The notes: generated by a model not told the origin, from the sequence alone. Positions 12,493-30,436 are shown, numbered from the stretch's first letter. The stretch is DNA of 32,000 nucleotides from Xylanibacter ruminicola 23 (GCF_000025925.1 NC_014033.1:1380001-1412000), one strand, 5' to 3'. Made by a program: numbers and translations.

Positions 12493-14884
12493 CCTTGATC
12501 AGCTGCTCACCTAAGTTGATGGTGTAGCCCTGCTGAACAAATACCACGCGGTTAAACGAATCGCAAATCAGGAACACAGGGAGTGCTGGGCTCTGCAGTT
12601 TCATCTGCTGCCACACTTCCTGTTTTATTTTACCCTCTACATCGGTTCCCCATACCACGGTGTTAGGCAGCTTGTCGAACTCGGCAAAGTTAAAGCGCTG
12701 TGCCTCGTCGTCGTTCTGGAACAGGAATATCATCTTTCTACCCCACTCCTCAAACTGCTGCTTATAAACCGAGATATCGCGCATAGCGTGGTTGGTAGGC
12801 TCCTGGTTAGGTGCCACAATAGCCAGCACATAATACCCGCGCCCAGTAGTAGAAAGCAGACTCTTATCGCTATCGGTAGCTTTGTCGTGATAGATATCCT
12901 CGGCATTTATCGACCCAATCACCTGTACATCCTCCTGATTCTCGCGCAGGGCGTAACTGATGGTGGTATCACCGTTAAGTGTAAAGCGCTGCATACGAGC
13001 CAGTACCTTACCGCTGGCCATACGCACACCGGTAGTAAGGATATACTCGCCCTTATCTATCTCCTGTCCGTTCACGAAATCTTGCTGGGTGGCATCCTCG
13101 GGGAATGTCTGCAACTGCAGCTGTCCATCCACCACCTTGCTCAGCGTAAAGTGGATGTAGTACTTAGGATTATCGTTGTGAGCCGACAGCTTGTAGTCCA
13201 GCTTCAGCTTGGCGGTGTTACCCTGCTTGGCGTTCTGGGCCTTGGCAAACACATCCACCCAACGTCCATCGGCATAGTACTGGGGCTTGCCGTTCACCTC
13301 GTTGATACGGGCAGGCATGCCTAAACTGCGAGCCACCGATACAAAGAAGATGTTACGACCCAGATCGTCGGTCAGCTTTTCGCGATACACACTCATAGGC
13401 TGCATACGCAATCCCTGTGGGTTATGATCGTTGTCGATGCGGATGTTCTGGTTGCACCATGCCTCCAGCTGGGCAGGACTCTTGATGCTACCCATGTGCT
13501 CGCGGAAGAAAGCCTTATAAGGTGTGAGCCACTCCAGCTCTACACGGGGGCACAGCACATACTTCAGATAGATATCCGATGTATCCACGGCAGCCACCTG
13601 ATTATCCTTCAGCACAGCCAGTTCGATATCACGCAGGTCCTTCTTAGCCAATACGCCGAGCAGTTTCTCTGCCATCAGCTGGTTGGGAGCCTCGTCCAGG
13701 AACTGCTGGATAGTACGGTGGTTACCGCGCCAGTCCTCAACCGGCATGGTAGCCTCGTAGGCATGACGGATACTGTCCTCGTAAGCCGAACGACGGTTGT
13801 TCTCAGCACGCTGCTCAGCAGTTACCAAAGGCAGCTGACCACTAACTGGTGGTGGCACGATATCGAGATCCACCAAATCAGGCAATTCCTTGCTGTTCAG
13901 CACGATTTTCACCTGCTTGTCCTTACCGAACGATACCTTACGGGTAGCCACCAAGCCACCTTTCGATACCCACAGCAGCATGTCGCCCTTACCGGCAGTC
14001 AGCGAGGCATGGCCCAGCTTGTCAGTAGTTTTGTTAGCTACGGTGTAGAACTCAGCATAGTTATACAGCTTAAACTCTACGCGGGCACCCGAAACAGGCT
14101 TGCCTTTAGCGTTAACCACCTGTACGTTAACCTGCGCGGTAGGTGCATAGTTATCTACCACGTTAATCTCTGTGTAACAAGGTGTCTGGCTCATCACCTC
14201 CTCAGGTCCGTCGTAGTTACCAAAAGCCTTGGTGTGCATCAGCATACCACGCGAGGCACTCTCGTTAAACCAACCCAGGTTCAGCACAGGCTCTGGCTCG
14301 CAGGCACCCAAGAAGTACCACTTGCCATCGGCCCAGGCCTCTACCCACGCATGGTTATCGTCGGTATGCGCCCAACGCGGGGTATAAACCTGACGGGCAG
14401 GAATACCTACGGCACGCAGGGCTGCAACAGTAAAAGTGCTCTGCTCGCCACAACGTCCATAAGCCGTACGGAGCGTTGCCAGCGGACTGCTGGTTCTGCC
14501 ATCCGACGGACGATACGTCACGTGCTCGTGGCACCAGTGGTTCACCTCGAGGATAGCCTCTTGCATACTCAGTTTCTCAACACGGGGCTTGAGGGCCTTG
14601 TAGAACACCTCGCGACTGTTGTCGAGATTCTCGTTGTTAACTCGCACGGGCACCACAAAATGGCGGAACTCGCGCTCTGGAATGGTTTTGCCCCATGGCA
14701 TCTCAGCACGTGCTTTGAGCGACAGGGCAACGTTCTGCTGGTAGAACTCGCGACTGTAATCAGTCTTGTCTGGCTGTGGCATAAACTGGTAAAGGTAGTC
14801 CACATAGCTGTCGCGGGTTTGAGCGCTGGCTGGTAGGCACATGGCGCTCAGCAGAATGGTGAAAATAGTTAGCGTTTTGTACAT
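12476..14884 (-). CDS. Secreted transglutaminase-core (Png1/PNGase-fold-like) protein with a thioredoxin-fold-like C-terminus
   Basis: Signal peptide MYKTLTIFTILLSAMCLPASAQ. Core motif: YGRCGEQSTF, IPARQVYTPRWAHTDDNHAWVEAW, FLGACEPE. The stop overlaps the cutC 3' end by 17 nt (convergent). The start lies 13 nt after the tyrA stop. Confidence 0.75.
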   Translation of the reverse strand: MYKTLTIFTILLSAMCLPASAQTRDSYVDYLYQFMPQPDKTDYSREFYQQNVALSLKARAEMPWGKTIPEREFRHFVVPVRVNNENLDNSREVFYKALKPRVEKLSMQEAILEVNHWCHEHVTYRPSDGRTSSPLATLRTAYGRCGEQSTFTVAALRAVGIPARQVYTPRWAHTDDNHAWVEAWADGKWYFLGACEPEPVLNLGWFNESASRGMLMHTKAFGNYDGPEEVMSQTPCYTEINVVDNYAPTAQVNVQVVNAKGKPVSGARVEFKLYNYAEFYTVANKTTDKLGHASLTAGKGDMLLWVSKGGLVATRKVSFGKDKQVKIVLNSKELPDLVDLDIVPPPVSGQLPLVTAEQRAENNRRSAYEDSIRHAYEATMPVEDWRGNHRTIQQFLDEAPNQLMAEKLLGVLAKKDLRDIELAVLKDNQVAAVDTSDIYLKYVLCPRVELEWLTPYKAFFREHMGSIKSPAQLEAWCNQNIRIDNDHNPQGLRMQPMSVYREKLTDDLGRNIFFVSVARSLGMPARINEVNGKPQYYADGRWVDVFAKAQNAKQGNTAKLKLDYKLSAHNDNPKYYIHFTLSKVVDGQLQLQTFPEDATQQDFVNGQEIDKGEYILTTGVRMASGKVLARMQRFTLNGDTTISYALRENQEDVQVIGSINAEDIYHDKATDSDKSLLSTTGRGYYVLAIVAPNQEPTNHAMRDISVYKQQFEEWGRKMIFLFQNDDEAQRFNFAEFDKLPNTVVWGTDVEGKIKQEVWQQMKLQSPALPVFLICDSFNRVVFVQQGYTINLGEQLIKVIRQL

Positions 14885-18110: not shown

Positions 18111-18953
18111 TTAATTGGTCTGCTTCCCATCCTTGTACTCACCCAGAATCTTCAGCGCCTTGGTAAGTGGGATGATGGCATCCACCGCCTGACGGTATCG
18201 TGTCAGATCATCGTACATCACATCTACGTAGAACAGGTACTCCCACTCCTTGCCGATGATGGGCAGACTCTGAATCTTTGTGAGGTTGATGTGATAGAAC
18301 GACAGGATGGCCAGTACGTGTGCCAGCGAGCCCTGCTCGTGAGGCAGCGAGAACACCATGCTGCTCTTGTTAGTCTCTGTAAGCGGACGCATCATATCGG
18401 CCTTGTTAGGATTGCTCACTACCAGGAATCGGGTAAAGTTATGCTTGTTGTCCTCGATGTGGTCCTCGAGCACCTTCAGTCCGTACAGCTTGGCAGCCTC
18501 GGCATGACAGATGGCAGCCCATCCGCGCTTCTTGCCCTCGGCAATCATCTTGGCACTACCGGCAGTATCCTCGGCCTCCACATTCTTAAGCTGTGGGTGC
18601 TGTGCCAGGAAGTTGCGGCACTGCATCAGGGCTACGGGGTGCGAGTGTACCTCGGTAATGGTGTCCCAATCGTCCTCGGGCAAACAACAGATGCTGTGGG
18701 TGATGTGCAGCTTATGCTCGCCTACGATGGCAGTACCGCTATCACGCAGCAGCTCGTAGTTGTGCAACAGACTACCCGCAATCGTATTCTCGATAGCCAG
18801 CATACCTATGGCGGTAGGATCCTTCTGCATCTCCTCAAACACCTGTTCGAAGGTTGAGCAGCAAATCAACTGTATCTGTTCTCCCTCGAAGTACAGGTGC
18901 GCCGCGATATCGTGGAACGACCCGATTAATCCTTGTATTGCAATTCTCTTCAT
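18111..18953 (-). CDS. pheA: Prephenate dehydratase (PDT plus ACT domains)
   Basis: IAIQGLIGSFHDIAA and TRFLVV, followed by a C-terminal ACT-like region. Confidence 0.9.
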   Translation of the reverse strand: MKRIAIQGLIGSFHDIAAHLYFEGEQIQLICCSTFEQVFEEMQKDPTAIGMLAIENTIAGSLLHNYELLRDSGTAIVGEHKLHITHSICCLPEDDWDTITEVHSHPVALMQCRNFLAQHPQLKNVEAEDTAGSAKMIAEGKKRGWAAICHAEAAKLYGLKVLEDHIEDNKHNFTRFLVVSNPNKADMMRPLTETNKSSMVFSLPHEQGSLAHVLAILSFYHINLTKIQSLPIIGKEWEYLFYVDVMYDDLTRYRQAVDAIIPLTKALKILGEYKDGKQTN

Positions 18954-18989
18954 TATCTCAATTTTTACATTTTCTAATTTTTACACTTT

Positions 18990-19030
18990 AAAAAAGCAAG
19001 TCCCGCTATCACTTGGTTGTGAAGCGGGAC
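18990..19030 (-). terminator. Intrinsic terminator hairpin of the pheA leader (attenuator)
   Basis: Minus-strand RNA reads GUCCCGCU-UCAC-AACCAA-GUGA-U-AGCGGGAC (8+4 bp stem with a 1-nt bulge), then UUGCUUUUUU. It ends 37 nt upstream of the pheA ATG. Confidence 0.65.
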
Positions 19031-19066
19031 CTTGTTGTTTTATCTTCCATTGTCATAAGTTGAACT

Positions 19067-19144
19067 TTACACGCAACTTCCCGCTTCACAGTGTCCTGCA
19101 AAGTAAAAATAATAACCGTAAAACCACACATTCAACATTGACAT
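19067..19144 (-). CDS. Aromatic-rich leader peptide MSMLNVWFYGYYFYFAGHCEAGSCV (25 aa)
   Basis: Manual translation. Codons 7-15 are W F Y G Y Y F Y F. Codons 19-22 overlap the antiterminator segment. The ORF is below the size cut-off of the ORF track. Confidence 0.6.
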   Translation of the reverse strand: MSMLNVWFYGYYFYFAGHCEAGSCV

Positions 19145-19172
19145 AATTCTCTCGTTTATTTGTTTACGGCTG

Positions 19173-19180
19173 CAAAAGTA
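19173..19180 (-). promoter_or_regulatory. -7 promoter box TACTTTTG (minus strand) of the aromatic operon; TTTG -33-like element at the complement of 19201-19204
   Basis: Exact TAnnTTTG match, with a TTTG 20 nt upstream. It lies 28 nt before the leader ATG. Confidence 0.5.
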
Positions 19181-19210
19181 TAGTATTTTTGCGAAATAAA
19201 CAAATAAAAT

Positions 19211-19234
19211 GGCAGAAATTTTGCGATTTCTGCC
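19211..19234 (-). terminator. Terminator of the primase-helicase module
   Basis: GGCAGAAAT-(6 nt)-ATTTCTGCC is a perfect 9-bp stem. On the minus strand it is followed by AUUUUAUUUGUUUAUUU. It lies 36 nt after the stop at 19270. Confidence 0.6.
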
Positions 19235-19269
19235 ACAAATTGTTATTTTTCGTGCTTTTACCTATATAT

Positions 19270-21795
19270 TTACGGTAATTCTTTTAAAATTTTACGATAT
19301 ACGCCATAACTTACTTTCTTGATTACGCCATCCTCTTTCAAGCGCTTTAGAGCACGCGATGTGGCAGAATCACTCGTGCCAAAACTGTCCTTAAACTGCT
19401 GCGTATTAAACTCCTCAGGCAACTGGCGGAAACATTCATCGTAACGCGTGGTGCGACGACGCTGTACAAACTCCTTATTCTGATCGGCAAAATAGTTAAA
19501 CGCCATCTCGCCAAAGAAGAACTTCTGAGACTGATACTGAATGTCCATCACCACACGACAGAAACGCTTATCTGTCTCATCCATGGATAGCGTGTGGTGC
19601 TCCTGCCACTCGTCCCAATGGCGCATCAGGATAAAGGGCAACGAGATGCCAATACCGTAATACGGAATACGCTTTAACAACATGCGATCGGCCTTATCGC
19701 CATTAAATTCAGCTATCTCCATCTTATCGGTCTGCCACTCATAGGTTTCGTCGTTCAGCGGTTCAATGGGTATCTCACCAGCCACCTTATCCAATCGGTA
19801 GGCCCACTTCTTCAACGTTTCTTCGCTACCCTCAATCACCTCTTGGTAGCGCTCCACCTTACCTTTATCAGGCAAAGGGATAACTGCCAGTCGGGTGCTC
19901 ATACCCGTACCAAAATTACGCTGGTTCACTTTGCGATGCAGGGCATAAGGCGTGCCGGTGTAGATAAAGTTCCAATACACGTTGAACATACCCGTTACGC
20001 TCTCCTGATTAGCGTACATCTGTCCGTCCTCCTCGTTGTGAAAGGCTTTCAGCTCCAGAATCTCACGGTCTTTCCAATCGCCACCTTTGTTATTTTTGGT
20101 AACGTTGTCAAGTTCCGAGTCGAACGAGAACATGTGCAGGTTCAGCGGCTTGCCATCTATCGTTTCGATGGCTGCATTCATGTGGCGGATAAACTCACCG
20201 GTAGCCGTACGTGCAGGGTGTACGCGGATGCCTACAGCAGGTCGTTTCAATGCCTCGCCCTTCTGCGCCTTGGTGCTGGTGGTGCGTTCCGTGCGCCCCT
20301 CCTTGTAGCGGTTCACAGCATCTATCAAACAGCTATCGGCTTGAATCATCGGGTCGGCAATCTGCTTGTAAAACTCCTCAATCATATGCTTTCCCGCACC
20401 AGGATCGCCGATAATAAAGATGCAGTAATTCAAGCGACGCACAATCTTTGGCGCAAACCAGAAGTGATACCAGGCACGCGTCATCAACGTCCCGAACAGC
20501 GCCGCCGATGAGAACAATACCGCTGGCAGTTTATGGGGATGCACATTCACAAACAGCTCCTTCATACAAGGATAAAACTCAGCCATCTCCTGCAACTCTT
20601 CAGCCCACTTATCCAGCGGCAATTGCGAGTAAACATCATCAGCCTCCCCCGCCCCCTCCAAAGGGAGGGGAGAATTTACAGTTGGTTCCGAAGGCTCTAA
20701 TACAGCCTTCATCTCCTTTGAGATTTTTGGCAGCCAGGCCTTCCCCTTCTTGGCATTATCGTTCTCCTGTGCCGTTACGTAGTCGGCAGCATTATCCACG
20801 GTACGCTTCACATCCTCGCCGCGCTCTGCTATCATATCCTGTACCCAAGGCTGTACCATCAGCAGGGCCAGTGTCTTAGCCTTATCACGGTCGGTCATAA
20901 TGTACAAATCGCGAGCCAGCACCACGCTGGCCTCATGCCTCGAAACCTCATCGCTGCTGGTAGATCGTTTTTTCCACCATGCTGCGATTATCGAGAGTAA
21001 CGGCATGCCATTGTACGTCAGAAGCTCAGCAATCCGCAGGTTGTCTCCATCGCCAGCTGATAAAGCAGGTTGGTTTTCTCCAGCACTTTCCACAGCGGCC
21101 ATATCAGCGCTATCAGCACTATTCTTAGCAACGTTAATAGTAGGCTGGCTACGACCAGCATGGTACTCATCGTTATACTTCTTACCAAATTCTTCGTTTT
21201 CATACGTAATCAATTTTTCTTCGTCAATAAAAATAATATCTTCACTTGTAGTAAGGAACGCACCCCTTGAGGCATCCTTGCAAGCCTCATCGGGGTTAAG
21301 CCCCAGCTTTTTAGAGAACACTATCTGGTTGTCAATCAGGTTGCCTACGTTGGCATCAGCCATAAACACAACCTTCAATCCATGCCCCGATGGCGTAACG
21401 TACACAAACAGAATCCTGGCCTTATCCTCGTCAGACAACTTGGCATAAGCTTCCTCCCAAACCTGGCGCACATCGCCCTCCACATGGTCAAAGTCAATCA
21501 CACACAAGCCGTTTAGCTTACAATGTTGCTGACTGCGCCAACTGCCCTTCTTAAAGGTTACATCGCCAGTAAGTTTGTTCTCAAACTTCTTATCCCATTC
21601 TTCATAGGTGGCAATGAAAATCACAAACGGCAGACTCTTTTTCTTGTTGTCGTAGGCATTCTTATCACCTCGGGCCAGCGCCTCGCGGGCTTCCTTTACT
21701 TTTCTGATAGTTTCAGGCGCCGTAATTAGCGCCCGAAACTGTTCTACTGTAACTATTTCGGTTGGTAAACCGAAGCTTCGTTGAAAGCAAAACAT
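19270..21795 (-). CDS. AEP-type primase (BT4734/VirE_N-like) fused to a P-loop NTPase; putative primase-helicase
   Basis: N-terminal prim-pol motifs are LCVIDFDHVEG (DxD) and VYVTPSGHGLKVVF. The C-terminal half has IFIIGDPGAGKH (Walker A with His in place of Ser/Thr) and MFSFDSE (Walker B-like). It overlaps the upstream gene by 43 nt. Confidence 0.6.
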   Translation of the reverse strand: MFCFQRSFGLPTEIVTVEQFRALITAPETIRKVKEAREALARGDKNAYDNKKKSLPFVIFIATYEEWDKKFENKLTGDVTFKKGSWRSQQHCKLNGLCVIDFDHVEGDVRQVWEEAYAKLSDEDKARILFVYVTPSGHGLKVVFMADANVGNLIDNQIVFSKKLGLNPDEACKDASRGAFLTTSEDIIFIDEEKLITYENEEFGKKYNDEYHAGRSQPTINVAKNSADSADMAAVESAGENQPALSAGDGDNLRIAELLTYNGMPLLSIIAAWWKKRSTSSDEVSRHEASVVLARDLYIMTDRDKAKTLALLMVQPWVQDMIAERGEDVKRTVDNAADYVTAQENDNAKKGKAWLPKISKEMKAVLEPSEPTVNSPLPLEGAGEADDVYSQLPLDKWAEELQEMAEFYPCMKELFVNVHPHKLPAVLFSSAALFGTLMTRAWYHFWFAPKIVRRLNYCIFIIGDPGAGKHMIEEFYKQIADPMIQADSCLIDAVNRYKEGRTERTTSTKAQKGEALKRPAVGIRVHPARTATGEFIRHMNAAIETIDGKPLNLHMFSFDSELDNVTKNNKGGDWKDREILELKAFHNEEDGQMYANQESVTGMFNVYWNFIYTGTPYALHRKVNQRNFGTGMSTRLAVIPLPDKGKVERYQEVIEGSEETLKKWAYRLDKVAGEIPIEPLNDETYEWQTDKMEIAEFNGDKADRMLLKRIPYYGIGISLPFILMRHWDEWQEHHTLSMDETDKRFCRVVMDIQYQSQKFFFGEMAFNYFADQNKEFVQRRRTTRYDECFRQLPEEFNTQQFKDSFGTSDSATSRALKRLKEDGVIKKVSYGVYRKILKELP

Positions 21796-22217
21796 TTGTC
21801 TATTTCACTTGTTAGTTGGTACAACTGCTTCCTTACGTCCAATGCTCCTTCAACCTCGAATGTGAGCCAGGCCATCAGCTGGGGATGCTCACCTTTAACA
21901 AGACAGACCTTCAGGTTGTCGTTGTTTACCAGATACTCGCCTTTCGGCATAGTAGGTTCTGTAATCTCGATGTCCTTGGTCAGCTTAGCCAACTCCTTAT
22001 GGAAATAGGCCGCCTTGTCAGCCACTTCATCCGGACATTTCAGTTCAATACACGTCAGCGGGTTCTTACCAGTGGTAGCATAACGCTTACTGCGCCCCAC
22101 TTTCTTCACATCCTTCTGACTGGGCACACCCTGAGCCTGAGGGTCAACCTCTATCGAACCATCATCATAGATTCTGGTGTTCGACTTATACGATTTCTGT
22201 AGCTTTCTCATACTCAT
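21753..22217 (-). CDS. Hypothetical protein (154 aa)
   Basis: Intact ORF whose start overlaps the stop of the preceding gene by 4 nt (22214-22217). No motif recognised. Confidence 0.55.
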   Translation of the reverse strand: MSMRKLQKSYKSNTRIYDDGSIEVDPQAQGVPSQKDVKKVGRSKRYATTGKNPLTCIELKCPDEVADKAAYFHKELAKLTKDIEITEPTMPKGEYLVNNDNLKVCLVKGEHPQLMAWLTFEVEGALDVRKQLYQLTSEIDKCFAFNEASVYQPK

Positions 22218-22507
22218 TTCACGCTAATCTTATCAATATAAATCGTGGTAGCCTGAATCTGTTCACCAGTCTGCTGCGACATCCAGTCTCTCACTACCAT
22301 CGAGCACTGCACCCTGTAGAAGTAGTTCTTGTCGTAAATCGGACAGTTAACGGCTCGTTCGCCTGTCACCTCGCCTAAGAACGTGTCAATACCATCAGTC
22401 AGCTTAAATGTAACAGCATTCATTACCTTTTCCTGACCAGTCTTTTTGTCGGTGTACTTTCTTGTTGAAAGTGCCGACTGCTCCAAAATTCTAACAGTCT
22501 TTTCCAT
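22214..22507 (-). CDS. Hypothetical protein (97 aa), possibly a small OB-fold/ssDNA-binding-like protein (weak impression only)
   Basis: Intact ORF with a beta-rich pattern reminiscent of DUF3127-type small OB-fold proteins. Not verifiable here. Confidence 0.5.
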   Translation of the reverse strand: MEKTVRILEQSALSTRKYTDKKTGQEKVMNAVTFKLTDGIDTFLGEVTGERAVNCPIYDKNYFYRVQCSMVVRDWMSQQTGEQIQATTIYIDKISVK

Positions 22508-22556
22508 TTTAATTTTTACCTTTTTTCATTTTTACCTTTTCCTTATATCTTGTTCC

Positions 22557-22994
22557 TTATTTCTTTAGCATAAACAATAAATAATCCTTCGTCTCAGCCA
22601 GCAATTCGATACCTAATTGGAAGTATTCCTTTTCTGGATTGAGATGCAGCAGATTCACCAGGTTATGGGCCAACCCGGTATTGTTGAACTGCAGGTTGTT
22701 GGAACCTGTCTTAAACTTAACCTCAATGCCCCGCGTGCGATTAAACATCAGCACCACATCGGTAGTCTGTCGGCTTCTTGTAAGCAGCATGTGGGTTGAT
22801 AGCTTTTTGGCTATCATCCGCGAATGTTCCTGATTAAACGTCAGTCGGTTGCCGCCCCTCAAACTCAGCGAACAGGTATCCTTGGGCAGACCCAGACAGT
22901 TACTCCTAGTCTTAACATTAATAATCTCCAAGTCCAAACTTTCCAACTGTGCAGCCTCATTAAGATCGGCACGCTTGGTTGATATCATCTTCAA
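22557..22994 (-). CDS. Hypothetical protein (145 aa from TTG 22994; alternative ATG at 22988)
   Basis: ORF track entry. The same reading frame continues upstream and is interrupted only by one TGA at 23091-23093. Confidence 0.5.
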   Translation of the reverse strand: MKMISTKRADLNEAAQLESLDLEIINVKTRSNCLGLPKDTCSLSLRGGNRLTFNQEHSRMIAKKLSTHMLLTRSRQTTDVVLMFNRTRGIEVKFKTGSNNLQFNNTGLAHNLVNLLHLNPEKEYFQLGIELLAETKDYLLFMLKK

Positions 22995-23219
22995 CCATTC
23001 TTCGTGTATAGCTAACCAAAAATCCTTGTCGTAAATCGACTTGGGATAAACACAAACGCCTGAGGTATCACGTTTTCTACCTTGGCTTTTTCAAGATAAG
23101 CCTCCCATAGTAGGAGGATTAACCGAAAGATGATTCTGTCGATAGTTCTGCGAAAACATCACATAGATATTTCGCACGTGTAGGAATCTTTTAAATTCCT
23201 GTATCTCTGTTCTTGTCAT
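22995..23219 (-). pseudogene. Interrupted 5' extension of the 145-aa ORF (42 codons, TGA, 32 codons, all in frame); possibly a decayed N-terminal domain
   Basis: ATG 23219 opens MTRTEIQEFKRFLHVRNIYVMFSQNYRQNHLSVNPPTMGGLS, then a stop. It continues KSQGRKRDTSGVCVYPKSIYDKDFWLAIHEEWLKMISTKR. The +1 frame also carries a protein-like stretch, EAYLEKAKVENVIPQAFVF. Confidence 0.3.
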
Positions 23220-23310
23220 AATAAAATGCTTTTTTACGTCGCCCCCTTTCAGGCGACCTTTATAATTAATAAATAATGTATTAACAGCCAATGTATCAAT
23301 AAATTAAAGA

Positions 23311-23360
23311 GCACTTGCAAACTGATTCTGAGCGTCCTCAGGTTTGCAAGTGCAAAGATA
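23311..23360 (-). promoter_or_regulatory. 12-bp perfect inverted repeat GCACTTGCAAAC-N19-GTTTGCAAGTGC abutting a minus-strand -7 box TATCTTTG (23353-23360)
   Basis: Read directly from the sequence. The loop contains a further 5-bp pair, CTGAG/CTCAG. Confidence 0.5.
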
Positions 23361-23421
23361 GATACAAATAATGTACGGGGGATAGTTTTAGGCAGCACCC
23401 GCCCTTACTATCCCCTGATTA

Positions 23422-23455
23422 CCCTTAATTGCCCATGAAAGCCCTTAATTGCCCA
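23422..23455. repeat. Direct repeat CCCTTAATTGCCCA x2 at 20-bp phasing, with a third partial unit GCCCTTA at 23401
   Basis: 23422-23435 equals 23442-23455 (14 of 14). The repeat lies immediately 3' of the stop at 23459. Confidence 0.9.
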
Positions 23456-23458
23456 AAC

Positions 23459-24565
23459 TTATTTGCTTAGATATTGGTTGCTAAAGTGTTTTTCGCTGAA
23501 TCCTTTACCAGTAGGCATACCCAATCTCACCAACTCGGCATAGACTGGCGACGGATTGGGTGGCAGAAGTATTTTCTTGTCGCGAGCCATCTGCTGCAGA
23601 TACTCGCATATCACTTGTACACTTTGTCGTTTTACTAAGCGTTTCACTTCATTATGAATCGCCACCCCGTCTTCGTCACTAATCGTTGGATGAATAAACT
23701 TAAACAGCTCCTCATCCGGTGTCTTTGCATGGGATGTTTGCTTCTCTAAGTCTTTCTGTTCTGCTTTCAAGTTTATGATGTCTTCGTGAATCATTTTCAG
23801 CTGCACGTCGTACTCATACAGGGCTATGCGCTGCTCCTTTGTAAACTTCTCGAAACAATACGAAAAAAGATAGGTGTATATTTGTTGGTAATCAATCATA
23901 AACATGCGTTCATCTTTCCAATACGAATACCGCTTCAGTTTAGCACACTCCTCAACAAAGTTTCCTGGCAACTCTTGTCCATGTTTGATGTCCTTCTTTA
24001 CCAGCTCCAACTTCACCGCGGCTATCTCGTCGCCTTTAGGATCCTCATCGTAGTACAAGACACCTTTTATCAGCATGTCAGCGGTTAGTTGCACCTGCTG
24101 CTGTATCAGCTGTTTTATCGTGGGATGCGGATGGCGTATGCGCCATAACTCATAATCAAGGGTATGGGTTGATTTCTCTAGTCGTGCTGCCATCCGCTTA
24201 AATACTTTTTCAGCATAATCTACATCCACTTGCAGAATCTTAATTTGCAGCTCCTGCAGCATGTTCACCAGAGTAACAATCTTCTGTTTCAGTGGCTCGA
24301 TAAGCGGTTGACGAGGCACGCTAAAGATTTTGCTTTTCAGCCAGTAGTCCACATCAGTCATGCGGTCAAAGTCAATTACCAGTGGAATCCTACAGCTTCT
24401 TATTGCCGACTTATCCAATAGCCGCTTTACAACACGTATGGCATCATCGGCCAGTTCGTTCATACACAAGCTGCAATGCACAAAAATCCGTTCACAGGTA
24501 AGGTCGTGCATGTTACAATGCTCCATCAAATCAGCTAGATTCATCAAAGTCTGTTTTTGTTTCAT
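23459..24565 (-). CDS. Hypothetical protein (368 aa from ATG 24565), Cys/His-rich N-terminus, long helical middle
   Basis: The ORF track starts at GTG 24625. I prefer ATG 24565 because it overlaps the stop of the upstream small ORF (ATGA) and gives MKQKQTLMNLADLMEHCNMHDLTCERIFVHCSLC. The C-terminus reads VYAELVRLGMPTGKGFSEKHF. Confidence 0.6.
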   Translation of the reverse strand: MKQKQTLMNLADLMEHCNMHDLTCERIFVHCSLCMNELADDAIRVVKRLLDKSAIRSCRIPLVIDFDRMTDVDYWLKSKIFSVPRQPLIEPLKQKIVTLVNMLQELQIKILQVDVDYAEKVFKRMAARLEKSTHTLDYELWRIRHPHPTIKQLIQQQVQLTADMLIKGVLYYDEDPKGDEIAAVKLELVKKDIKHGQELPGNFVEECAKLKRYSYWKDERMFMIDYQQIYTYLFSYCFEKFTKEQRIALYEYDVQLKMIHEDIINLKAEQKDLEKQTSHAKTPDEELFKFIHPTISDEDGVAIHNEVKRLVKRQSVQVICEYLQQMARDKKILLPPNPSPVYAELVRLGMPTGKGFSEKHFSNQYLSK

Positions 24566-24687
24566 AACAGCCAAACACCTCCTTTCTGTTTGATGGTTAG
24601 ATACTTGGTTGCATAGCGGGAACACTTCACACAGAAGGTTCCCTCGCGTTGGAGCCAGTTAGCTCCGGTTTTGGGGTTGATAGTCAT
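24562..24687 (-). CDS. Small ORF (41 aa) MTINPKTGANWLQREGTFCVKCSRYATKYLTIKQKGGVWLL
   Basis: Manual translation. It starts 54 nt downstream of the -7 box and its stop overlaps the next ATG (ATGA). No homology recognised. Confidence 0.3.
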   Translation of the reverse strand: MTINPKTGANWLQREGTFCVKCSRYATKYLTIKQKGGVWLL

Positions 24688-24740
24688 AATTATAAATTTT
24701 GAATGGTAATTTATTAGCGTGTTCTATTGAAGAACAGACG

Positions 24741-24748
24741 CAAAGGTA
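24741..24748 (-). promoter_or_regulatory. -7 promoter box TACCTTTG (minus strand) for the module
   Basis: Plus-strand CAAAGGTA. Confidence 0.45.
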
Positions 24749-25001
24749 CAAATAAGTGAGCACAATACAAAAAATGGGTACCCCAAAAAACTACATATTC
24801 ATTTAAGATGTAGGATAATTAAGAATTTTTATGTACCTTTACTCGATATGCCACATGCACAACTGACGCAGTTCTGAGTGATCTGTGTATATTTTGCACA
24901 TACCACTTCTCGTTGTAACTCACCCTCTTTAATTAGATACAAAGAAAAATAAGAAATACAAACATTTTAGCCAATAATTCTTGGAATTGGAAAGAAATTC
25001 G

Positions 25002-25043: not shown

Positions 25044-25343
25044 ATGATTAAGATGTATGTAATGGAGACTTGTCCCGACTGTGCTTATGTCGAGAAGCAA
25101 GTAGAAGGAAACCCTAATTTTGAAGTGATCGACATCGGTAAGCATGTCAGAAACCTGAAGCAGTTTATCAAGCTTCGTGATACACATCCGGCTTTTGATG
25201 AAGCGAAGGCCGTGGGTGACTTAGGTATTCCCTGCTACGTACTGGAAGATGGCACAGTAACGCTCTACTCGAAGGATGTCGGTTTGGAGCCACGTCCCCA
25301 GGACGAAGGTGCTGCTTGTAGCCTCGATGGACGAGGATGTTAG
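25044..25343 (+). CDS. Glutaredoxin-like (NrdH/YruB-like) small thioredoxin-fold protein
   Basis: MIKMYVMETCPDCAYVEKQ carries a CPDC redox motif, and GIPCYVLEDGTV is also present. There is an extra C-terminal Cys pair, ACSLDGRGC. Confidence 0.75.
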   Translation: MIKMYVMETCPDCAYVEKQVEGNPNFEVIDIGKHVRNLKQFIKLRDTHPAFDEAKAVGDLGIPCYVLEDGTVTLYSKDVGLEPRPQDEGAACSLDGRGC

Positions 25344-25402
25344 GTATGTAACTCAATCGTTTAGAAAACAACATATCCTTTATATTGGATATATATTTTC
25401 AA

Positions 25403-25759
25403 ATGGAGCTATTTGACGAGGAGAATATACATACCACGCTTGATGAACAGTGGGAGAATTACGGGACGCTCAACTATATTGAAGATGAGCGTCGTGAGAG
25501 CTATGCTGATTCTGCTGTGGAACGTAGTGAACTACTTGGACAGATAGCAGCAATGATAGATCGACATCTTACCCGTCAGGAATCAGAAATACTCCGTTCC
25601 TATTTTGGGCTGCAAATGAAGCGCGTATCTGTAGAAGAACTGGCACTAAGAAATGGTGTGTCGAAAAAACGAATCATACGGATTGTTGGTGATGCTGTAG
25701 ATAAACTACGCTTCAGCGACGATGCTATTGACATCTGGAAGTATCTGTATAGAAAATGA
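25403..25759 (+). CDS. Sigma-70 region-4-only HTH protein with an acidic N-terminus (118 aa)
   Basis: LTRQESEILRSYFGLQMKRVSVEELALRNGVSKKRIIRIVGDAVDKLR resembles sigma region 4.2. No region 2 is present. I prefer ATG 25403 over TTG 25385. Confidence 0.6.
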   Translation: MELFDEENIHTTLDEQWENYGTLNYIEDERRESYADSAVERSELLGQIAAMIDRHLTRQESEILRSYFGLQMKRVSVEELALRNGVSKKRIIRIVGDAVDKLRFSDDAIDIWKYLYRK

Positions 25760-26831: not shown

Positions 26832-26839
26832 TAATTTTG
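26832..26839 (+). promoter_or_regulatory. -7 promoter box TAATTTTG for umuDC
   Basis: Exact consensus match 19 nt before ATG 26858. The TTG start in the ORF track (26837) lies inside the box. Confidence 0.45.
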
Positions 26840-26857
26840 CAGCAAAATAATAAAAAT

Positions 26858-27310
26858 ATGAATGAACCAGAGATAAAAAAGGCGGATGTTTCTACCGAGC
26901 TGGAGCTGCCGATGTACGATGCGATTGCAGCCGGATTTCCCATTACCAGCGACTATCCTGCTGACAGGTTGGACTTTAATCGCGACTTTATCAAGCACCC
27001 CGAAAGTACGTTTTATGTACGTGTGAAAGGTGACTCGATGAAGGAGGCCGGCATTTTTGATGGCGACTTGTGCCTGGTGGATAAAGCCGAGGAGATGGAA
27101 CACGGCAATATCGTAGCTGCGTATGTAAACGGTGGCTTTACGGTGAAGTATCTCGATACATCCACCAAGGATCAGGGCTTTATCCGACTGGTGCCTGCCA
27201 ATAAGGATTTCAAGCCGTTTATCATCGATTCGTCAGATGAGTTTACCGTCTGGGGCAAAGTAATTTTTACCATTAGAGACTGGAGGAATAGCTATTGTTT
27301 GCCATTATAG
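26858..27310 (+). CDS. umuD: UmuD-like S24 peptidase (SOS mutagenesis accessory subunit)
   Basis: Ala-Gly self-cleavage site in YDAIAAGFP, Ser nucleophile in KGDSM, Lys in FTVKYL. No N-terminal DNA-binding domain. Confidence 0.85.
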   Translation: MNEPEIKKADVSTELELPMYDAIAAGFPITSDYPADRLDFNRDFIKHPESTFYVRVKGDSMKEAGIFDGDLCLVDKAEEMEHGNIVAAYVNGGFTVKYLDTSTKDQGFIRLVPANKDFKPFIIDSSDEFTVWGKVIFTIRDWRNSYCLPL

Positions 27311-28587
27311 ATTGCGATAATTGCTTCGTGAGTTGCGAGCGTGTATTTAGGCCCGATCTCAACGGAAAGCCCGTCGTTGTATTGTCGAACAACGATGGTT
27401 GTGTGGTTGCGCGCTCAAACGAAGCAAAGGCCATGGGCATCAAAGCTGGAACACCTTATTATCAGCTGAAGGAGCTCTTCCCCGGACAGGAGATAGCCGT
27501 ATTTTCATCGAACTACGAACTGTATATCGATATGACCGACAGAGTGATGTCGCTTATCCGAAAGGAGGTGCCTGAATTCTATCGTTACAGCATCGACGAA
27601 GGTTTCTGTATGCTCAAGGGGTTGGAGCATCTCGACCTGAAAGCATGGGGCGAGGAGATGCACCAGCGCATCAAACAATGCACGGGCATGCCGGTAAGCA
27701 TAGGCATCGCCTCTACCAAGACCTTGGCTAAGATGGCCAGCCATTATGCCAAGAAATACCCCGGATTTCACCATTGTTGCTATATCAACCATGTGTCACG
27801 TCGCGACAAGGCCTTGGAACTTTATCCCATCAGCGAGGTTTGGGGTATAGGCCGACAGTATGCCAAGCGACTTGAAGCTATAGGCATCAAGACAGCCTAT
27901 GATTTTGCAACTCAAAGCCGAAGTTGGGTTCGATCCACCTTTAATGTGGTGGTTGAGCGCACCTGGCGTGAACTGAATGGCGAGGATTGCATTTTGCTGG
28001 AGGACATGAGCAAGAAGAAAAGTATCTGTACCAGCAGGAGTTTCCCCGGGATGGTGAACGATTTTGAGACGCTGCGAACCAGTATCAGCAACTTTGCCGC
28101 CCATTGTGCCGAGAAGCTACGCAAACAGCAATCGGCAGCGGCGATAGTGAGTGTATTTATCGACACGAACCACTTCAGAGAAGATCTACCCCAGTATTGG
28201 AACTATGCCGAGGAACGACTGTTGACACCCAGCAGTAGCACGCAGGATATCGTGCAATGTGCGCTGCGATGCACCAAACAGATATACCGACAAGGCTACC
28301 AATACAAGCGAGCGGGTGTGATTGTGATGGGCATTTGCCCTGATACGGCTGTGCAGACCAATTTCATCGACTACGATTCGGAGAAATATGAGAAAAAGCG
28401 AAAACTGGATGAAGCCATCGACCGTATCAATCGCATAAATGGTAGTGAGACTGTGGTGCTGGGGGCGCAACAATATACGGCTAAAGACGGTAAAGGCCGA
28501 GCTAGTATTTTCCGTGACAGCATCAAGCACGACTTCCGCAGTCCAAGCTACACTACCAAGTGGAGTGATATCCCAGAAGCGGAATAA
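27295..28587 (+). CDS. umuC: UmuC-like Y-family DNA polymerase (Pol V catalytic subunit type)
   Basis: (M)FAIIDCDNCFVSCERVFRPDLNGKPVVVLSNNDGCVVARSNEAKAMGIK closely parallels the E. coli UmuC N-terminus. TTG start, 16-nt overlap with umuD. Confidence 0.9.
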   Translation: MFAIIDCDNCFVSCERVFRPDLNGKPVVVLSNNDGCVVARSNEAKAMGIKAGTPYYQLKELFPGQEIAVFSSNYELYIDMTDRVMSLIRKEVPEFYRYSIDEGFCMLKGLEHLDLKAWGEEMHQRIKQCTGMPVSIGIASTKTLAKMASHYAKKYPGFHHCCYINHVSRRDKALELYPISEVWGIGRQYAKRLEAIGIKTAYDFATQSRSWVRSTFNVVVERTWRELNGEDCILLEDMSKKKSICTSRSFPGMVNDFETLRTSISNFAAHCAEKLRKQQSAAAIVSVFIDTNHFREDLPQYWNYAEERLLTPSSSTQDIVQCALRCTKQIYRQGYQYKRAGVIVMGICPDTAVQTNFIDYDSEKYEKKRKLDEAIDRINRINGSETVVLGAQQYTAKDGKGRASIFRDSIKHDFRSPSYTTKWSDIPEAE

Positions 28588-28751: not shown

Positions 28752-28826
28752 CATCATCAGATAAAAAAAGTAGCTTTGTGGACTAAAATAACTACCAAAA
28801 CATTTGCACAATTCAAATATTTTTTG

Positions 28827-28834
28827 TACCTTTG
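28827..28834 (+). promoter_or_regulatory. -7 promoter box TACCTTTG, with TTTG at 28803-28806, for the HU-like gene
   Basis: Both elements are present with 20-nt spacing. This implies a 5' UTR of about 155 nt. Confidence 0.5.
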
Positions 28835-28860
28835 CAATGTTGTTGAAAGGCAACAAAAAA

Positions 28861-28927
28861 GAGCGCTTAAGCCATAGAAAAATTTTCAGTAGGCCTACCA
28901 GAAAATTTTAGATGGCTACACCCGCTC
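28861..28927 (+). other. 67-nt quasi-palindrome / long imperfect hairpin in the 5' UTR of the HU-like gene
   Basis: Pairs are GAGCG/CGCTC, AGCCAT/ATGGCT, AAAATTTTC/GAAAATTTT and GTA/TAC, arranged around a central AGGCCT. Confidence 0.6.
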
Positions 28928-28998
28928 AAACACGACTAAGGAAGAGGTTTTAAGGAAAAGGAAAGATTATAACAAACCCTTTAATTTAAAACAAAATT

Positions 28999-29568
28999 AT
29001 GGCACTTAAAGTAAAGGCAGTTGAGCGACTGCTTAAGTTTGACAAAGAGAAAGAAGGTAAGTATCGTTATGTACTGAGCCCCGACCTGTACTCAAGTCTG
29101 GATCAGGACAAGGTAATCAAGGAGGCTGCCAGTCGCAGCGGTGTGATGGAAGGCGTGATGCAGGCCTGCTGGAATGCTGCTGGCGAGGTAATCAAGGCCT
29201 GGGCCACCGAAGGACACTCGGTTGCCATTCCCGGACTGGGCACCATGCGTTTCGGACTGCGCGGTAAGGCGGTTGAGAACGTGAACGAGGTCAAAGCCGG
29301 ACTGATCACCACCCGTCGTATCATCTTTACACCAACGGTTAAGCTGAAGGATGAGCTGGCTAACACCGCTATCCAGATTACCTGTATCGACCGCAACGGC
29401 AAGGAGGTGAAGCGTGTAACCAGTAGCGACAGCGGCGACGTGGAGGATCCTGAGAACGAGAATGGTGGCAACACCAATCAGGGTGGCAATCAGCCAAGCA
29501 ATGGTGGCGGTAACCAGGGTGGTAACACAGGCGGTGGCAGCGGTAGCCACGAGCCGATTGGAGACTAA
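28999..29568 (+). CDS. HU-family DNA-binding protein, Bacteroidales type, with a Gly/Asn-rich tail (HU-HIG-like)
   Basis: The HU fold pattern is VAIPGLGTMRFGLRGKAV followed by RRIIFTPTVKLKDEL. The C-terminal low-complexity tail is NENGGNTNQGGNQPSNGGGNQGGNTGGGSG. Confidence 0.75.
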   Translation: MALKVKAVERLLKFDKEKEGKYRYVLSPDLYSSLDQDKVIKEAASRSGVMEGVMQACWNAAGEVIKAWATEGHSVAIPGLGTMRFGLRGKAVENVNEVKAGLITTRRIIFTPTVKLKDELANTAIQITCIDRNGKEVKRVTSSDSGDVEDPENENGGNTNQGGNQPSNGGGNQGGNTGGGSGSHEPIGD

Positions 29569-29594
29569 GGGCTTGGGGCTTAGGCCCCGCCCTA

Positions 29595-29627
29595 CATTAA
29601 ACATGAAACATTAAAGATTAAACATTA
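29595..29627 (+). repeat. Copy B of the AAACATGAAACATTAAAGATTAAACATTA repeat, directly 5' of the small-peptide ATG
   Basis: 29599-29627 equals 11770-11798 (29 of 29). Confidence 0.9.
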
Positions 29628-29728
29628 TGAGTAAGAGAGAAACAGTAAAGTTCATCGTACAGATGATAGCGAGTATCGCCACAGCGATAGTAACCGCCCT
29701 AGGTGCAACCAGCTGCATGGGCCTGTAA
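29627..29728 (+). CDS. 33-aa hydrophobic peptide MSKRETVKFIVQMIASIATAIVTALGATSCMGL; resembles the Bacteroidales 'smalltalk' peptides found next to HU-like genes (from memory)
   Basis: Manual translation. It is followed after 8 nt by a strong terminator and lies 58 nt after the HU-like gene. Confidence 0.5.
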   Translation: MSKRETVKFIVQMIASIATAIVTALGATSCMGL

Positions 29729-29944: not shown

Positions 29945-30436
29945 ATGAAAGATTTTGCTGCAATAGATTTTGAGACTGCTAACAACGAGCGAACCAGTGT
30001 TTGCTCAGTAGGAGTTGTGATTGTGAGAGATGGCGAGATTGTGGATTCCTTCTATTCGCTGATACAGCCAGAGCCCAATTACTATAATTATTGGTGTAGT
30101 CAGGTGCATGGACTAACACGTCAGGATACAGAGGAGGCCCCAATATTTCCAGAAGTATGGAAGCAGATTGAGCCAATGATTGAAGGTTTGCCCTTGGTGG
30201 CACATAACAAAGCTTTCGATGAGAGTTGCTTAAAGGCCGTGTTTCGTTGTTATCAGATGGACTATCCAGATTATCAGTTCTATTGTACTTGTGTGGCTTC
30301 TCGCAAAGCATTCCCAAATGCCGCGAATCACCAGCTACATACGATTTCTAAGCTATGTGGTTATGAGCTAGAGAACCACCATCATGCCCTCGCCGATGCC
30401 GAAGCATGTGCCTGGATAGCCAGAGAAATCCTATAA
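29945..30436 (+). CDS. DnaQ-like 3'-5' exonuclease (DEDDh family, stand-alone)
   Basis: Exo I AIDFETAN, Exo II AHNKAFDESCL, Exo III HHALADAEACAWI. Confidence 0.85.
   Translation: MKDFAAIDFETANNERTSVCSVGVVIVRDGEIVDSFYSLIQPEPNYYNYWCSQVHGLTRQDTEEAPIFPEVWKQIEPMIEGLPLVAHNKAFDESCLKAVFRCYQMDYPDYQFYCTCVASRKAFPNAANHQLHTISKLCGYELENHHHALADAEACAWIAREIL

Follow-up and report, generated by a model that had tools for sequence, protein, structure and literature searches.

Replicases with a BT4734-type archaeo-eukaryotic primase (AEP) domain are known from bacterial mobile elements (Iyer et al. 2005, as cited in PMC5862659 and PMC11724360), and a layout of primase, ATPase and winged helix has been described for mobile-element replicases (PMC5862659). 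On one integrated element a BT4734-like PrimPol is paired with a PriCT-DUF3987 protein (PMC11724360), and in Bacteroides thetaiotaomicron VirE and DUF3987 genes are located between an integrase gene and genes for MobC and a relaxase (PMC10434189). Primases of the PF08800 family appear in a list of the ten Pfam families with the greatest over-representation in the human gut microbiome (PMC2880560), and we found no paper that tests the function of the chromosomal PF08800 copies in Bacteroidales. Here we describe a compact cassette built around such a primase in a 32,000-nucleotide stretch of Xylanibacter ruminicola 23 (GCF_000025925.1, NC_014033.1:1380001-1412000), referred to as the window, whose coordinates are used throughout. 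The cassette is on the minus strand, at 19211-24748, and we read it tentatively as a non-autonomous replication cassette that descends from a mobile element or phage and is maintained by selection, a reading that we regard as plausible rather than probable.

The initial annotation of this stretch listed seven open reading frames (ORFs), two promoter boxes, a terminator, the gene overlaps, and AEP and Walker A motifs, and all of these were recovered at the same positions on the minus strand. Its description of a discrete, compact, single-orientation unit with no integrase was borne out, as was the placing of an AEP primase fused to a P-loop ATPase at the centre of the block, for which there are both profile matches and motifs. 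No integrase, relaxase, capsid or terminase gene was found anywhere from the pheA-type operon on one side to atpG on the other. For comparison we assembled 54 genome loci, one virome locus, 20 identical-protein contexts and 80 metagenome loci (fetched loci carry labels such as L001), and scanned the cassette proteins against Pfam, PHROGs, NCBIfam and PADLOC (PADLOC-DB v2). As reported at the outset, most of the products are nameless: the 41-, 368-, 219/243-, 97- and 154-aa proteins match nothing in these four libraries.

A search of other genomes for the same gene order shows that a succession of 97-aa, 154-aa, 841-aa and lysin genes is conserved in about 50 loci, behind variable front ends. 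The invariant core consists of the 97-aa (22214-22507), 154-aa (21753-22217) and 841-aa (19270-21795) genes, which form a translationally coupled operon; the 154-aa ORF shares 4 nt with the 97-aa ORF and 43 nt with the 841-aa ORF. So far this core is almost exclusively found in Prevotellaceae, plus a few unclassified Bacteroidales metagenome-assembled genomes (MAGs). It is usually followed by one of two types of phage endolysin, either a protein of about 142 aa (phrog_873, E=6.6e-38) or a Peptidase_M15_3 protein (phrog_894). In the window there is only a junction at 19259-19269 where relatives have the ~142-aa endolysin gene and a 96-aa ORF, and the lysin region of L001 (12459-12914) has no window counterpart; the endolysin gene has been lost in this genome.

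The 841-aa replicase combines an AEP domain, a PriCT-like helical segment (aa ~270-330), a P-loop ATPase and a winged helix. From profile matches and motifs its N-terminus (aa ~11-221, nt 21133-21765) is a BT4734-like (VirE_N) AEP primase domain: it matches PF08800 with 38.7 bits against a gathering cut-off of 22.4 (E=1.4e-9, aa 76-189), as do 34 of 41 family representatives taken at 50% clustering, and the 841-aa protein matches the PADLOC profile RTasVirE-PriCT2 with E=1.8e-14. Conservation was read from 42 close-relative sequences, in which both aspartates of motif I (IDFDH, aa 100-104) are nearly invariant (D101 in 40, D103 in 39), the histidine of motif II (SGHG, aa 136-139) is present in 28 and is otherwise Q, K or R, and motif III (CKD) is kept in the family consensus. 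The primase is not novel as such, and its closest relatives are already named 'VirE N-terminal domain-containing' or 'BT4734/BF3469 family' in the source databases. A replicase that might have been taken for a pseudogene, that of L072, was rejected as one, since its interruption is a 100-N scaffold gap and not a mutation.

The remainder of the protein is a DUF3987-like ATPase (aa ~400-760, nt 19516-20598) and a putative winged helix (aa ~785-835, nt 19291-19443), for which weak winged helix-turn-helix matches were obtained repeatedly. The window protein itself has no match to Pfam DUF3987 (PF13148); in its relatives the matches are below the gathering score (E=1.6e-4 to 2.6e-3), and 11 of the 41 representatives reach E<=1e-3, the best being 2.1e-6. 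Sequence and profile searches of the PDB with the 841-aa protein gave generic P-loop proteins and a weak Crp-type winged helix, and nothing further. The unusual Walker A motif noticed earlier, GDPGAGKH (aa 463-470), does not conform to the canonical GxxxxGK[ST] and proved to be both real and subfamily-specific, with the residue after the lysine being His in 20 and Asn in 20 of the 42 sequences, while the wider family consensus retains GKS. G468, K469, E561 (Walker B), E588, N609, R635 and R709 are invariant down to about 22% identity, and the replicase gene has a ratio of nonsynonymous to synonymous substitution rates (dN/dS) of 0.06-0.15.

Solo paralogues of the C-terminal half of the replicase (ATPase and winged helix, 410-472 aa, 39-46% identical) are present in L054 (9959-11377), at the same position in L055, and in L056 (10019-11251), and these carry the canonical GKS Walker A. 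Those in L054 and L055 have a housekeeping context (lysS, gpsA and a DNA alkylation repair gene), and the neighbourhood in L056 differs. Such a paralogue may be a domesticated copy.

The two small core proteins are widespread but anonymous. About 685 homologues of the 97-aa protein were found, those listed being mostly 97 aa long and from Prevotella or metagenome assemblies, and the 154-aa protein has about 1,900 homologues, is present in 43 fetched loci, and has a dN/dS of 0.08-0.28. None of the homologues of either has a Pfam domain or an informative name, and the few that are named are hypothetical proteins from Prevotella. At this locus there are two deeply diverged alleles of the 97-aa gene (dS>1.9, omega ~0.1). 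The 97-aa protein is predicted to be all beta-strand, and its AlphaFold model has six strands in an all-beta arrangement (pLDDT 60.7), whereas that of the 154-aa protein is unusable (pLDDT 46.8); both models are poor because the homologues at hand are all more than 70% identical. A Foldseek search with the 97-aa model, one of the checks proposed at the outset, gave no significant match (best E 0.19, with several single-stranded DNA-binding proteins (SSBs) at TM<=0.32 among the weak ones), the NCBIfam ssb profile is matched weakly (E=0.082), and hhalign against E. coli SSB returned a probability of 1.7%. An OB/SSB-like fold, suggested for this protein by the initial annotation, is possible.

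Individual genomes have from two to four copies of the cassette, which occupy unrelated sites and of which many are at contig ends. One MAG contains two 6.1-kb copies that are 99.2% identical and have different flanks, in which the right edge of the duplication is just past a terminator 3' of the lysin gene and the left edge is ragged. The presence of several copies at unrelated sites, the Rha/ANT and endolysin genes of the relatives, and the absence of the cassette here from most sister lineages uphold the earlier proposal of an accessory block with mobile-element or phage ancestry. The more specific suggestion of a satellite or autonomous replicon is not supported: nothing points to either, and neither att sites nor terminal repeats were seen, nor any circular contig or packaging gene.

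A true phage satellite or integrative mobilisable element, whose recombinase and packaging or transfer functions are supplied in trans by a helper phage or a conjugative element, would be in keeping with the compact size of 5.5-6.5 kb, the primase-helicase accompanied by Rha/ANT-type regulators and small unrecognised proteins, and the copies at unrelated sites, the near-identical 6.1-kb duplicate included. We nonetheless consider it improbable. Within 10 kb of about 50 cassette loci we surveyed 106 non-redundant ORF families of 285-450 aa, and no integrase, relaxase or transposase family recurs among them, nor are there boundary repeats, so the proposed search for a flanking integrase or att sites elsewhere came back empty; the flanking families that do recur are Fic, RhuM, glycosyltransferases and the like. 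In the window itself there is no relaxase or Mob protein and no integrase, the island holds no recombinase domain or att repeats of its own, att-like direct repeats and terminal inverted repeats are lacking, and the left edge of the duplicated copy is ragged. Packaging, capsid-redirecting and mobilisation genes are absent, as are circular contigs, and no cassette protein has a PHROG structural or packaging match. Searches of 50,697 phage records, 72,556 plasmids and IMG/VR were essentially empty: the 41-, 368-, 219/243-, 97- and 154-aa proteins match nothing in the phage records, there is no plasmid match, and the lone IMG/VR match is a chromosomal-looking fragment with a type I restriction-modification system and a transporter.

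The history of this locus can be followed through the adjacent prephenate dehydratase (PDT) gene. All ten contexts with an identical PDT have the cassette at the same position and in the same orientation, which rules against a recent insertion here; in one of them a scaffold gap interrupts the replicase gene. Sister lineages whose PDT is 91-99% identical provided 79 usable loci. About five of these have a cassette beside PDT, one of them with a replicase just 32% identical to that of the window; at least 70 lack it, and the loci without a cassette have ordinary chromosomal genes there. The initial annotation had set against its own proposal a block that is syntenic and core in all relatives and shows no mobility, and this holds only in part, as the cassette is fixed in the ten closest contexts and most sister lineages lack it. 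L079 has, in place of the core, a gene cluster for a 1228-aa cadherin-like surface protein and a 388-aa lipoprotein, with the left breakpoint inside a front-end gene and the right breakpoint at the cassette terminator. In the loci L078-L157 the DNA directly 5' of the PDT gene differs greatly between related Prevotella lineages, which have many different gene sets there.

Across strains of the clade the replicase is orthologous (dS 0.14-0.36) and the front ends are unrelated, while the flanking genes have a dS of 0.02-0.38 (<0.2 everywhere but L001). Within the clade the cassette is a mosaic, parts of which have been replaced at one fixed locus. All core genes have a dN/dS of ~0.06-0.28 and are under strong purifying selection. 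From the distribution across loci, the mosaic dS and the low dN/dS, it follows that the cassette is probably accessory, old, exchanged by recombination and kept by selection, and on these comparisons it appears to be neither a fresh insertion nor a decaying remnant. To a decaying prophage or mobilisable-element remnant with no present function, which is invited by the loss of the lysin here, the frameshift of a front-end gene in the window (see below), the lack of a recombinase and the replacement of the cassette in L079, we give little credence, as there are thousands of full-length homologues in the same gene order, dN/dS is about 0.1 in all three core genes, and catalytic residues are kept down to ~25% identity.

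Upstream of the core there are interchangeable front ends, including the pair of 41-aa and 368-aa genes, the 219-aa gene, a different 388-aa protein, Rha with ANT, ANT only, and several unrecognised families. In the window the first front-end gene is the 41-aa ORF with an FCVKC motif (24562-24687, minus strand), which is also called as a gene, with 56-93% identity, in L008, L012, L068, L069, L071, L073 and L078. Its stop codon is overlapped by the ATG of the 368-aa gene (ATGA; 23459-24565, minus strand), the mechanical ORF of which is 388 aa from an upstream GTG. The 368-aa protein, which has no match among the phage records either, has a dN/dS of 0.05-0.29, and its C-terminal domain of ~85 aa is also present in an otherwise unrelated front-end family of 140-157 aa (F26). 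The Cys/His-rich N-terminus ascribed to it is real, but only three cysteines are kept among its close relatives, and the segment is missing entirely from other family members.

The next front-end gene (22557-23291, minus strand) was described by the initial annotation as an interrupted ORF plus a 145-aa ORF, and these are in fact a single gene. In the window it is split into parts of 66 aa (23091-23291) and 145 aa (22557-22994) by a +1/+2 indel pair that gives a local, compensated frameshift and a stop. It is found in 13 loci and is intact in L068, L071, L073 and L078 and in the public record BPTT01000001.1 (GCA_019973335.1), with a product of 219 aa from the first ATG or 243 aa in the database gene call. 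That record is 99.98% identical to the window with no substitutions over 20.8 kb, and the sole differences are three extra window bases, at 23053-23054 and 23106, all within this gene. The discrepancy may reflect different assembly versions, an error in sequencing or a genuine variant.

An outer promoter of the Bacteroidetes type (24741-24771, minus strand) is located upstream of the 41-aa ORF, with a -7 box TACCTTTG at 24748-24741 and a -33 TTTG at 24771, and is one of four matches in the window to the full pattern TTTG-N17-23-TAnnTTTG (0.67 expected). An internal -7 box, TATCTTTG (23360-23353, minus strand), precedes the 219/243-aa gene and the core operon and has no -33 element at the full-pattern spacing; the same box is directly 5' of the 97-aa gene in L012 and L069, and it is the predicted promoter of the 219/243-aa gene and the core operon. 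A sigma-70 promoter scan was set aside as uninformative for Bacteroidetes. The cassette ends at an intrinsic terminator (19236-19209, minus strand; an 11-pair hairpin followed by a T run), which is also the right-hand homology boundary relative to cassette-free relatives, with similarity stopping at 19251 (L079) or 19229 (L089, L092 and L096).

Between the stop codon of the 368-aa gene and the internal promoter there is a direct-repeat array (23418-23454) with two copies of GGGCAATTAAGGG at a distance of 20 nt and partial copies recurring every 10 nt. The same GGGCAATTAAGGG pair is 3' of the 368-aa gene in the divergent locus L012. In other loci (L033, L037, L077 and L010) the corresponding place, just 5' of the core promoter, is occupied by another short repeat in three to five copies (GTCGGACAT, CTCCCAC, GTTCTGAAA or CGGGATAT). 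In a per-region Markov-shuffle test four of ten independent intergenic regions exceed the shuffles at P<=0.003, and a fifth gives P=0.043; a cruder test of arrays against all intergenic regions genome-wide is weak (P=0.036, n=10). An attempt to tie the array sequence to one binding protein failed, as the front ends of the window and L010 share a near-identical C-terminal domain and their arrays differ. The array may be an operator, an iteron set, or both.

How such a replication cassette might work can be proposed from its domains and anatomy. Either a front-end protein or the replicase would bind the 10-bp-periodic repeat array and control the internal promoter. The 841-aa protein would then bind DNA through its winged helix, open it with the ATPase and lay primers with the AEP domain, with the 97-aa protein (possibly binding single-stranded DNA) and the 154-aa protein acting as cofactors. 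The outcome would be either in-cis replication, with local over-replication of the cassette and the adjoining variable island, or action on incoming DNA. The cassette would not excise itself, and would spread and diversify by duplication and by homologous exchange between copies.

Several observations weigh against a replication cassette. A replication origin was not identified, and neither the 97-aa nor the 154-aa fold could be established. The GGGCAATTAAGGG array follows the 368-aa front end and not the replicase allele, and the near-identical replicase of L057 (dN 0.010) has a different front end and is without the GGGCAATTAAGGG array; the array tracks the front end and therefore may be just an operator. 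As the Ser/Thr of Walker A is replaced by His or Asn in the subfamily, ATP hydrolysis may be altered. There are no convincing terminal or att repeats around either the window cassette or the 6.1-kb duplicated copy, no circular contigs among the whole contigs examined and no evidence of excised or circular forms, and the cassette is unvaryingly present in the identical-PDT contexts.

The cassette is part of a low-GC island (~19.2-31.4 kb, GC 0.40-0.45 compared with ~0.52 to its left) between the pheA-type operon and atpG, and its neighbours here and elsewhere bear on two further explanations. A role as an anti-phage or conflict system is in our estimate rather unlikely. In such a system the front end would detect infection, foreign DNA would be the target or the trigger of the primase-helicase, and cell killing would fall to the endolysin in the loci that have it. 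BT4734-like AEP domains are found in defence-associated reverse transcriptases (DRTs), CRISPR-associated PrimPols and pAgo clusters (PADLOC matches; PMC11724360), and defence genes adjoin many of the loci (Cas9 in L001, McrBC and HNH in L072, AbiH in L061, GmrSD in L057, type I restriction-modification in L077, methylase/endonuclease sets in L006 and L038, as well as Fic and RhuM), although such adjacency could be mere co-location in variable islands. HU-HIG genes, proposed interceptors of invading DNA (PMC5499826), recur upstream, and the fast-varying front ends and deep 97-aa alleles point the same way. However, PADLOC, to which the initial annotation had looked for defence functions, matches the AEP domain only (DRT- and Cas-associated PrimPol profiles), with no model for any partner protein and no system-level match, and the lysins have no obvious signal peptide or holin partner and are dispensable here.

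A host-domesticated accessory for replication or repair, for example in repriming or restart, acting together with the umuDC and exonuclease genes close by, seems to us very improbable. The solo ATPase and winged-helix paralogues in a conserved housekeeping context are what it would lead one to expect, AEP PrimPols have repair roles (PMC11724360), and umuD-umuC (Peptidase_S24 and Y-family polymerase; 26837-28587) and a DnaQ-like 3'-5' exonuclease gene (29945-30436; phrog_192, E=1.7e-39) are located in the same low-GC island. Yet there are several diverged copies of the cassette with lineage-variable presence and variable front ends, and umuDC is unlinked to it in other loci.

A bolder form of our preferred reading, that of a maintained replication cassette, is a chromosomally fixed, self-priming replication switch, in which a sensor front end derepresses the operon through the array, and the GK[H/N] primase-helicase with its two cofactors fires replication in place, either amplifying the adjacent variable or defence island or aborting infection with the endolysin. 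We offer this as speculation that is quite unlikely to be right as a whole; if true, it would be a Prevotellaceae-specific conflict system with no described counterpart. Should the cassette replicate in place or defend against phage, this would help to explain the adjoining variable islands in rumen Prevotellaceae, and might also be relevant to similar primases encoded by gut Bacteroidales. If the cassette is no more than a tolerated remnant, one must still account for its conservation. The window provides a clean and bounded example, with natural variants that have or lack the lysin or are core-less, and these give handles for genetics in the cultivable Xylanibacter ruminicola.

Other features of the neighbourhood were observed along the way. 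Beyond the outer promoter are a glutaredoxin-like 99-aa gene and then a gene for a 124-aa protein consisting of sigma-70 region 4 alone (a weak match to the MzaA defence sigma), at 25044-25759; the pair is divergent beside the cassette in many strains, and each gene also occurs without the cassette (L079 and L001). Some strains (L057 and L059) are missing umuC. An HU-HIG gene (28999-29568) has its own Bacteroidetes-type promoter (28803-28834) and a 33-aa DUF6486 ORF just 3' of it (region 28803-29725), and in at least 13 independent loci an HU-HIG gene precedes a primase cassette by a few kb, usually on the opposite strand. On the other side of the terminator there is a likely Phe/Tyr attenuator (18990-19204, minus strand), 5' of an operon for PDT, an aminotransferase, DAHP synthase/chorismate mutase and prephenate dehydrogenase. 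It has a promoter TTTG...TACTTTTG at 19204-19173, a leader ORF of 25 aa (19144-19067; MSMLNVWFYGYYFYFAGHCEAGSCV, with nine aromatic residues), alternative hairpins in which 19090-19074 pairs with 19034-19018, and a terminator-like stem with a T tract immediately ahead of the PDT start (18953). Short tandem repeats rich in A (AAGGTAAAAAT-like, with an 8- or 16-nt period) are located just 5' of the start codons of the 97-aa gene (22507-22540), PDT (18951-18989) and the L032 lysin gene (12623-12654), and may belong to the translation-initiation leaders of these genomes and not to the cassette.

We found no description of the cassette as a unit in the searchable literature. The replicase family is already known; what we did not find described is a unit with two obligate partners, alternative lysins, swap-in front ends, locus-specific arrays and no recombinase, present in multiple copies. 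Phage satellites (P4-like, PICI/cfPICI and PLE) resemble it in small size, a primase-helicase replicase, the antirepressor-type regulators of cassette relatives and many unassigned proteins, but the cassette has no integrase, att sites, or packaging or capsid-remodelling genes, is absent from viromes, and is fixed here in a whole close clade. The HU-HIG expansion of Bacteroidetes (Burroughs et al. 2017, PMC5499826) is likewise multi-copy, fast-diverging and order-specific, and HU-HIG and DUF6486 recur upstream of the cassette; HU-HIG genes are reported to be without conserved gene linkage (PMC5499826), and their link to primase cassettes here is loose, over a few kb with variable content between. 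Integrative mobilisable elements of Bacteroides (BT4615-BT4623, with integrase, HTH, VirE, DUF3987, MobC and relaxase; PMC10434189) share the same primase-ATPase type in a compact accessory block on a Bacteroidales chromosome, whereas the cassette has no integrase, MobC or relaxase in the window or recurring within 10 kb of the ~50 loci, and no plasmid match. The closest likeness is to the replicases that join a BT4734-like (VirE_N, PF08800) AEP to a DUF3987/VirE-type ATPase, in that the 841-aa protein has an AEP with DxD, sGH and D motifs, a P-loop ATPase that is weakly but repeatedly matched to DUF3987, and a C-terminal winged helix. It differs from these in an ATPase that is too divergent for Pfam DUF3987, in having GK[H/N] in place of GK[S/T], and in the two small unrecognised proteins that are always encoded 5' of it.

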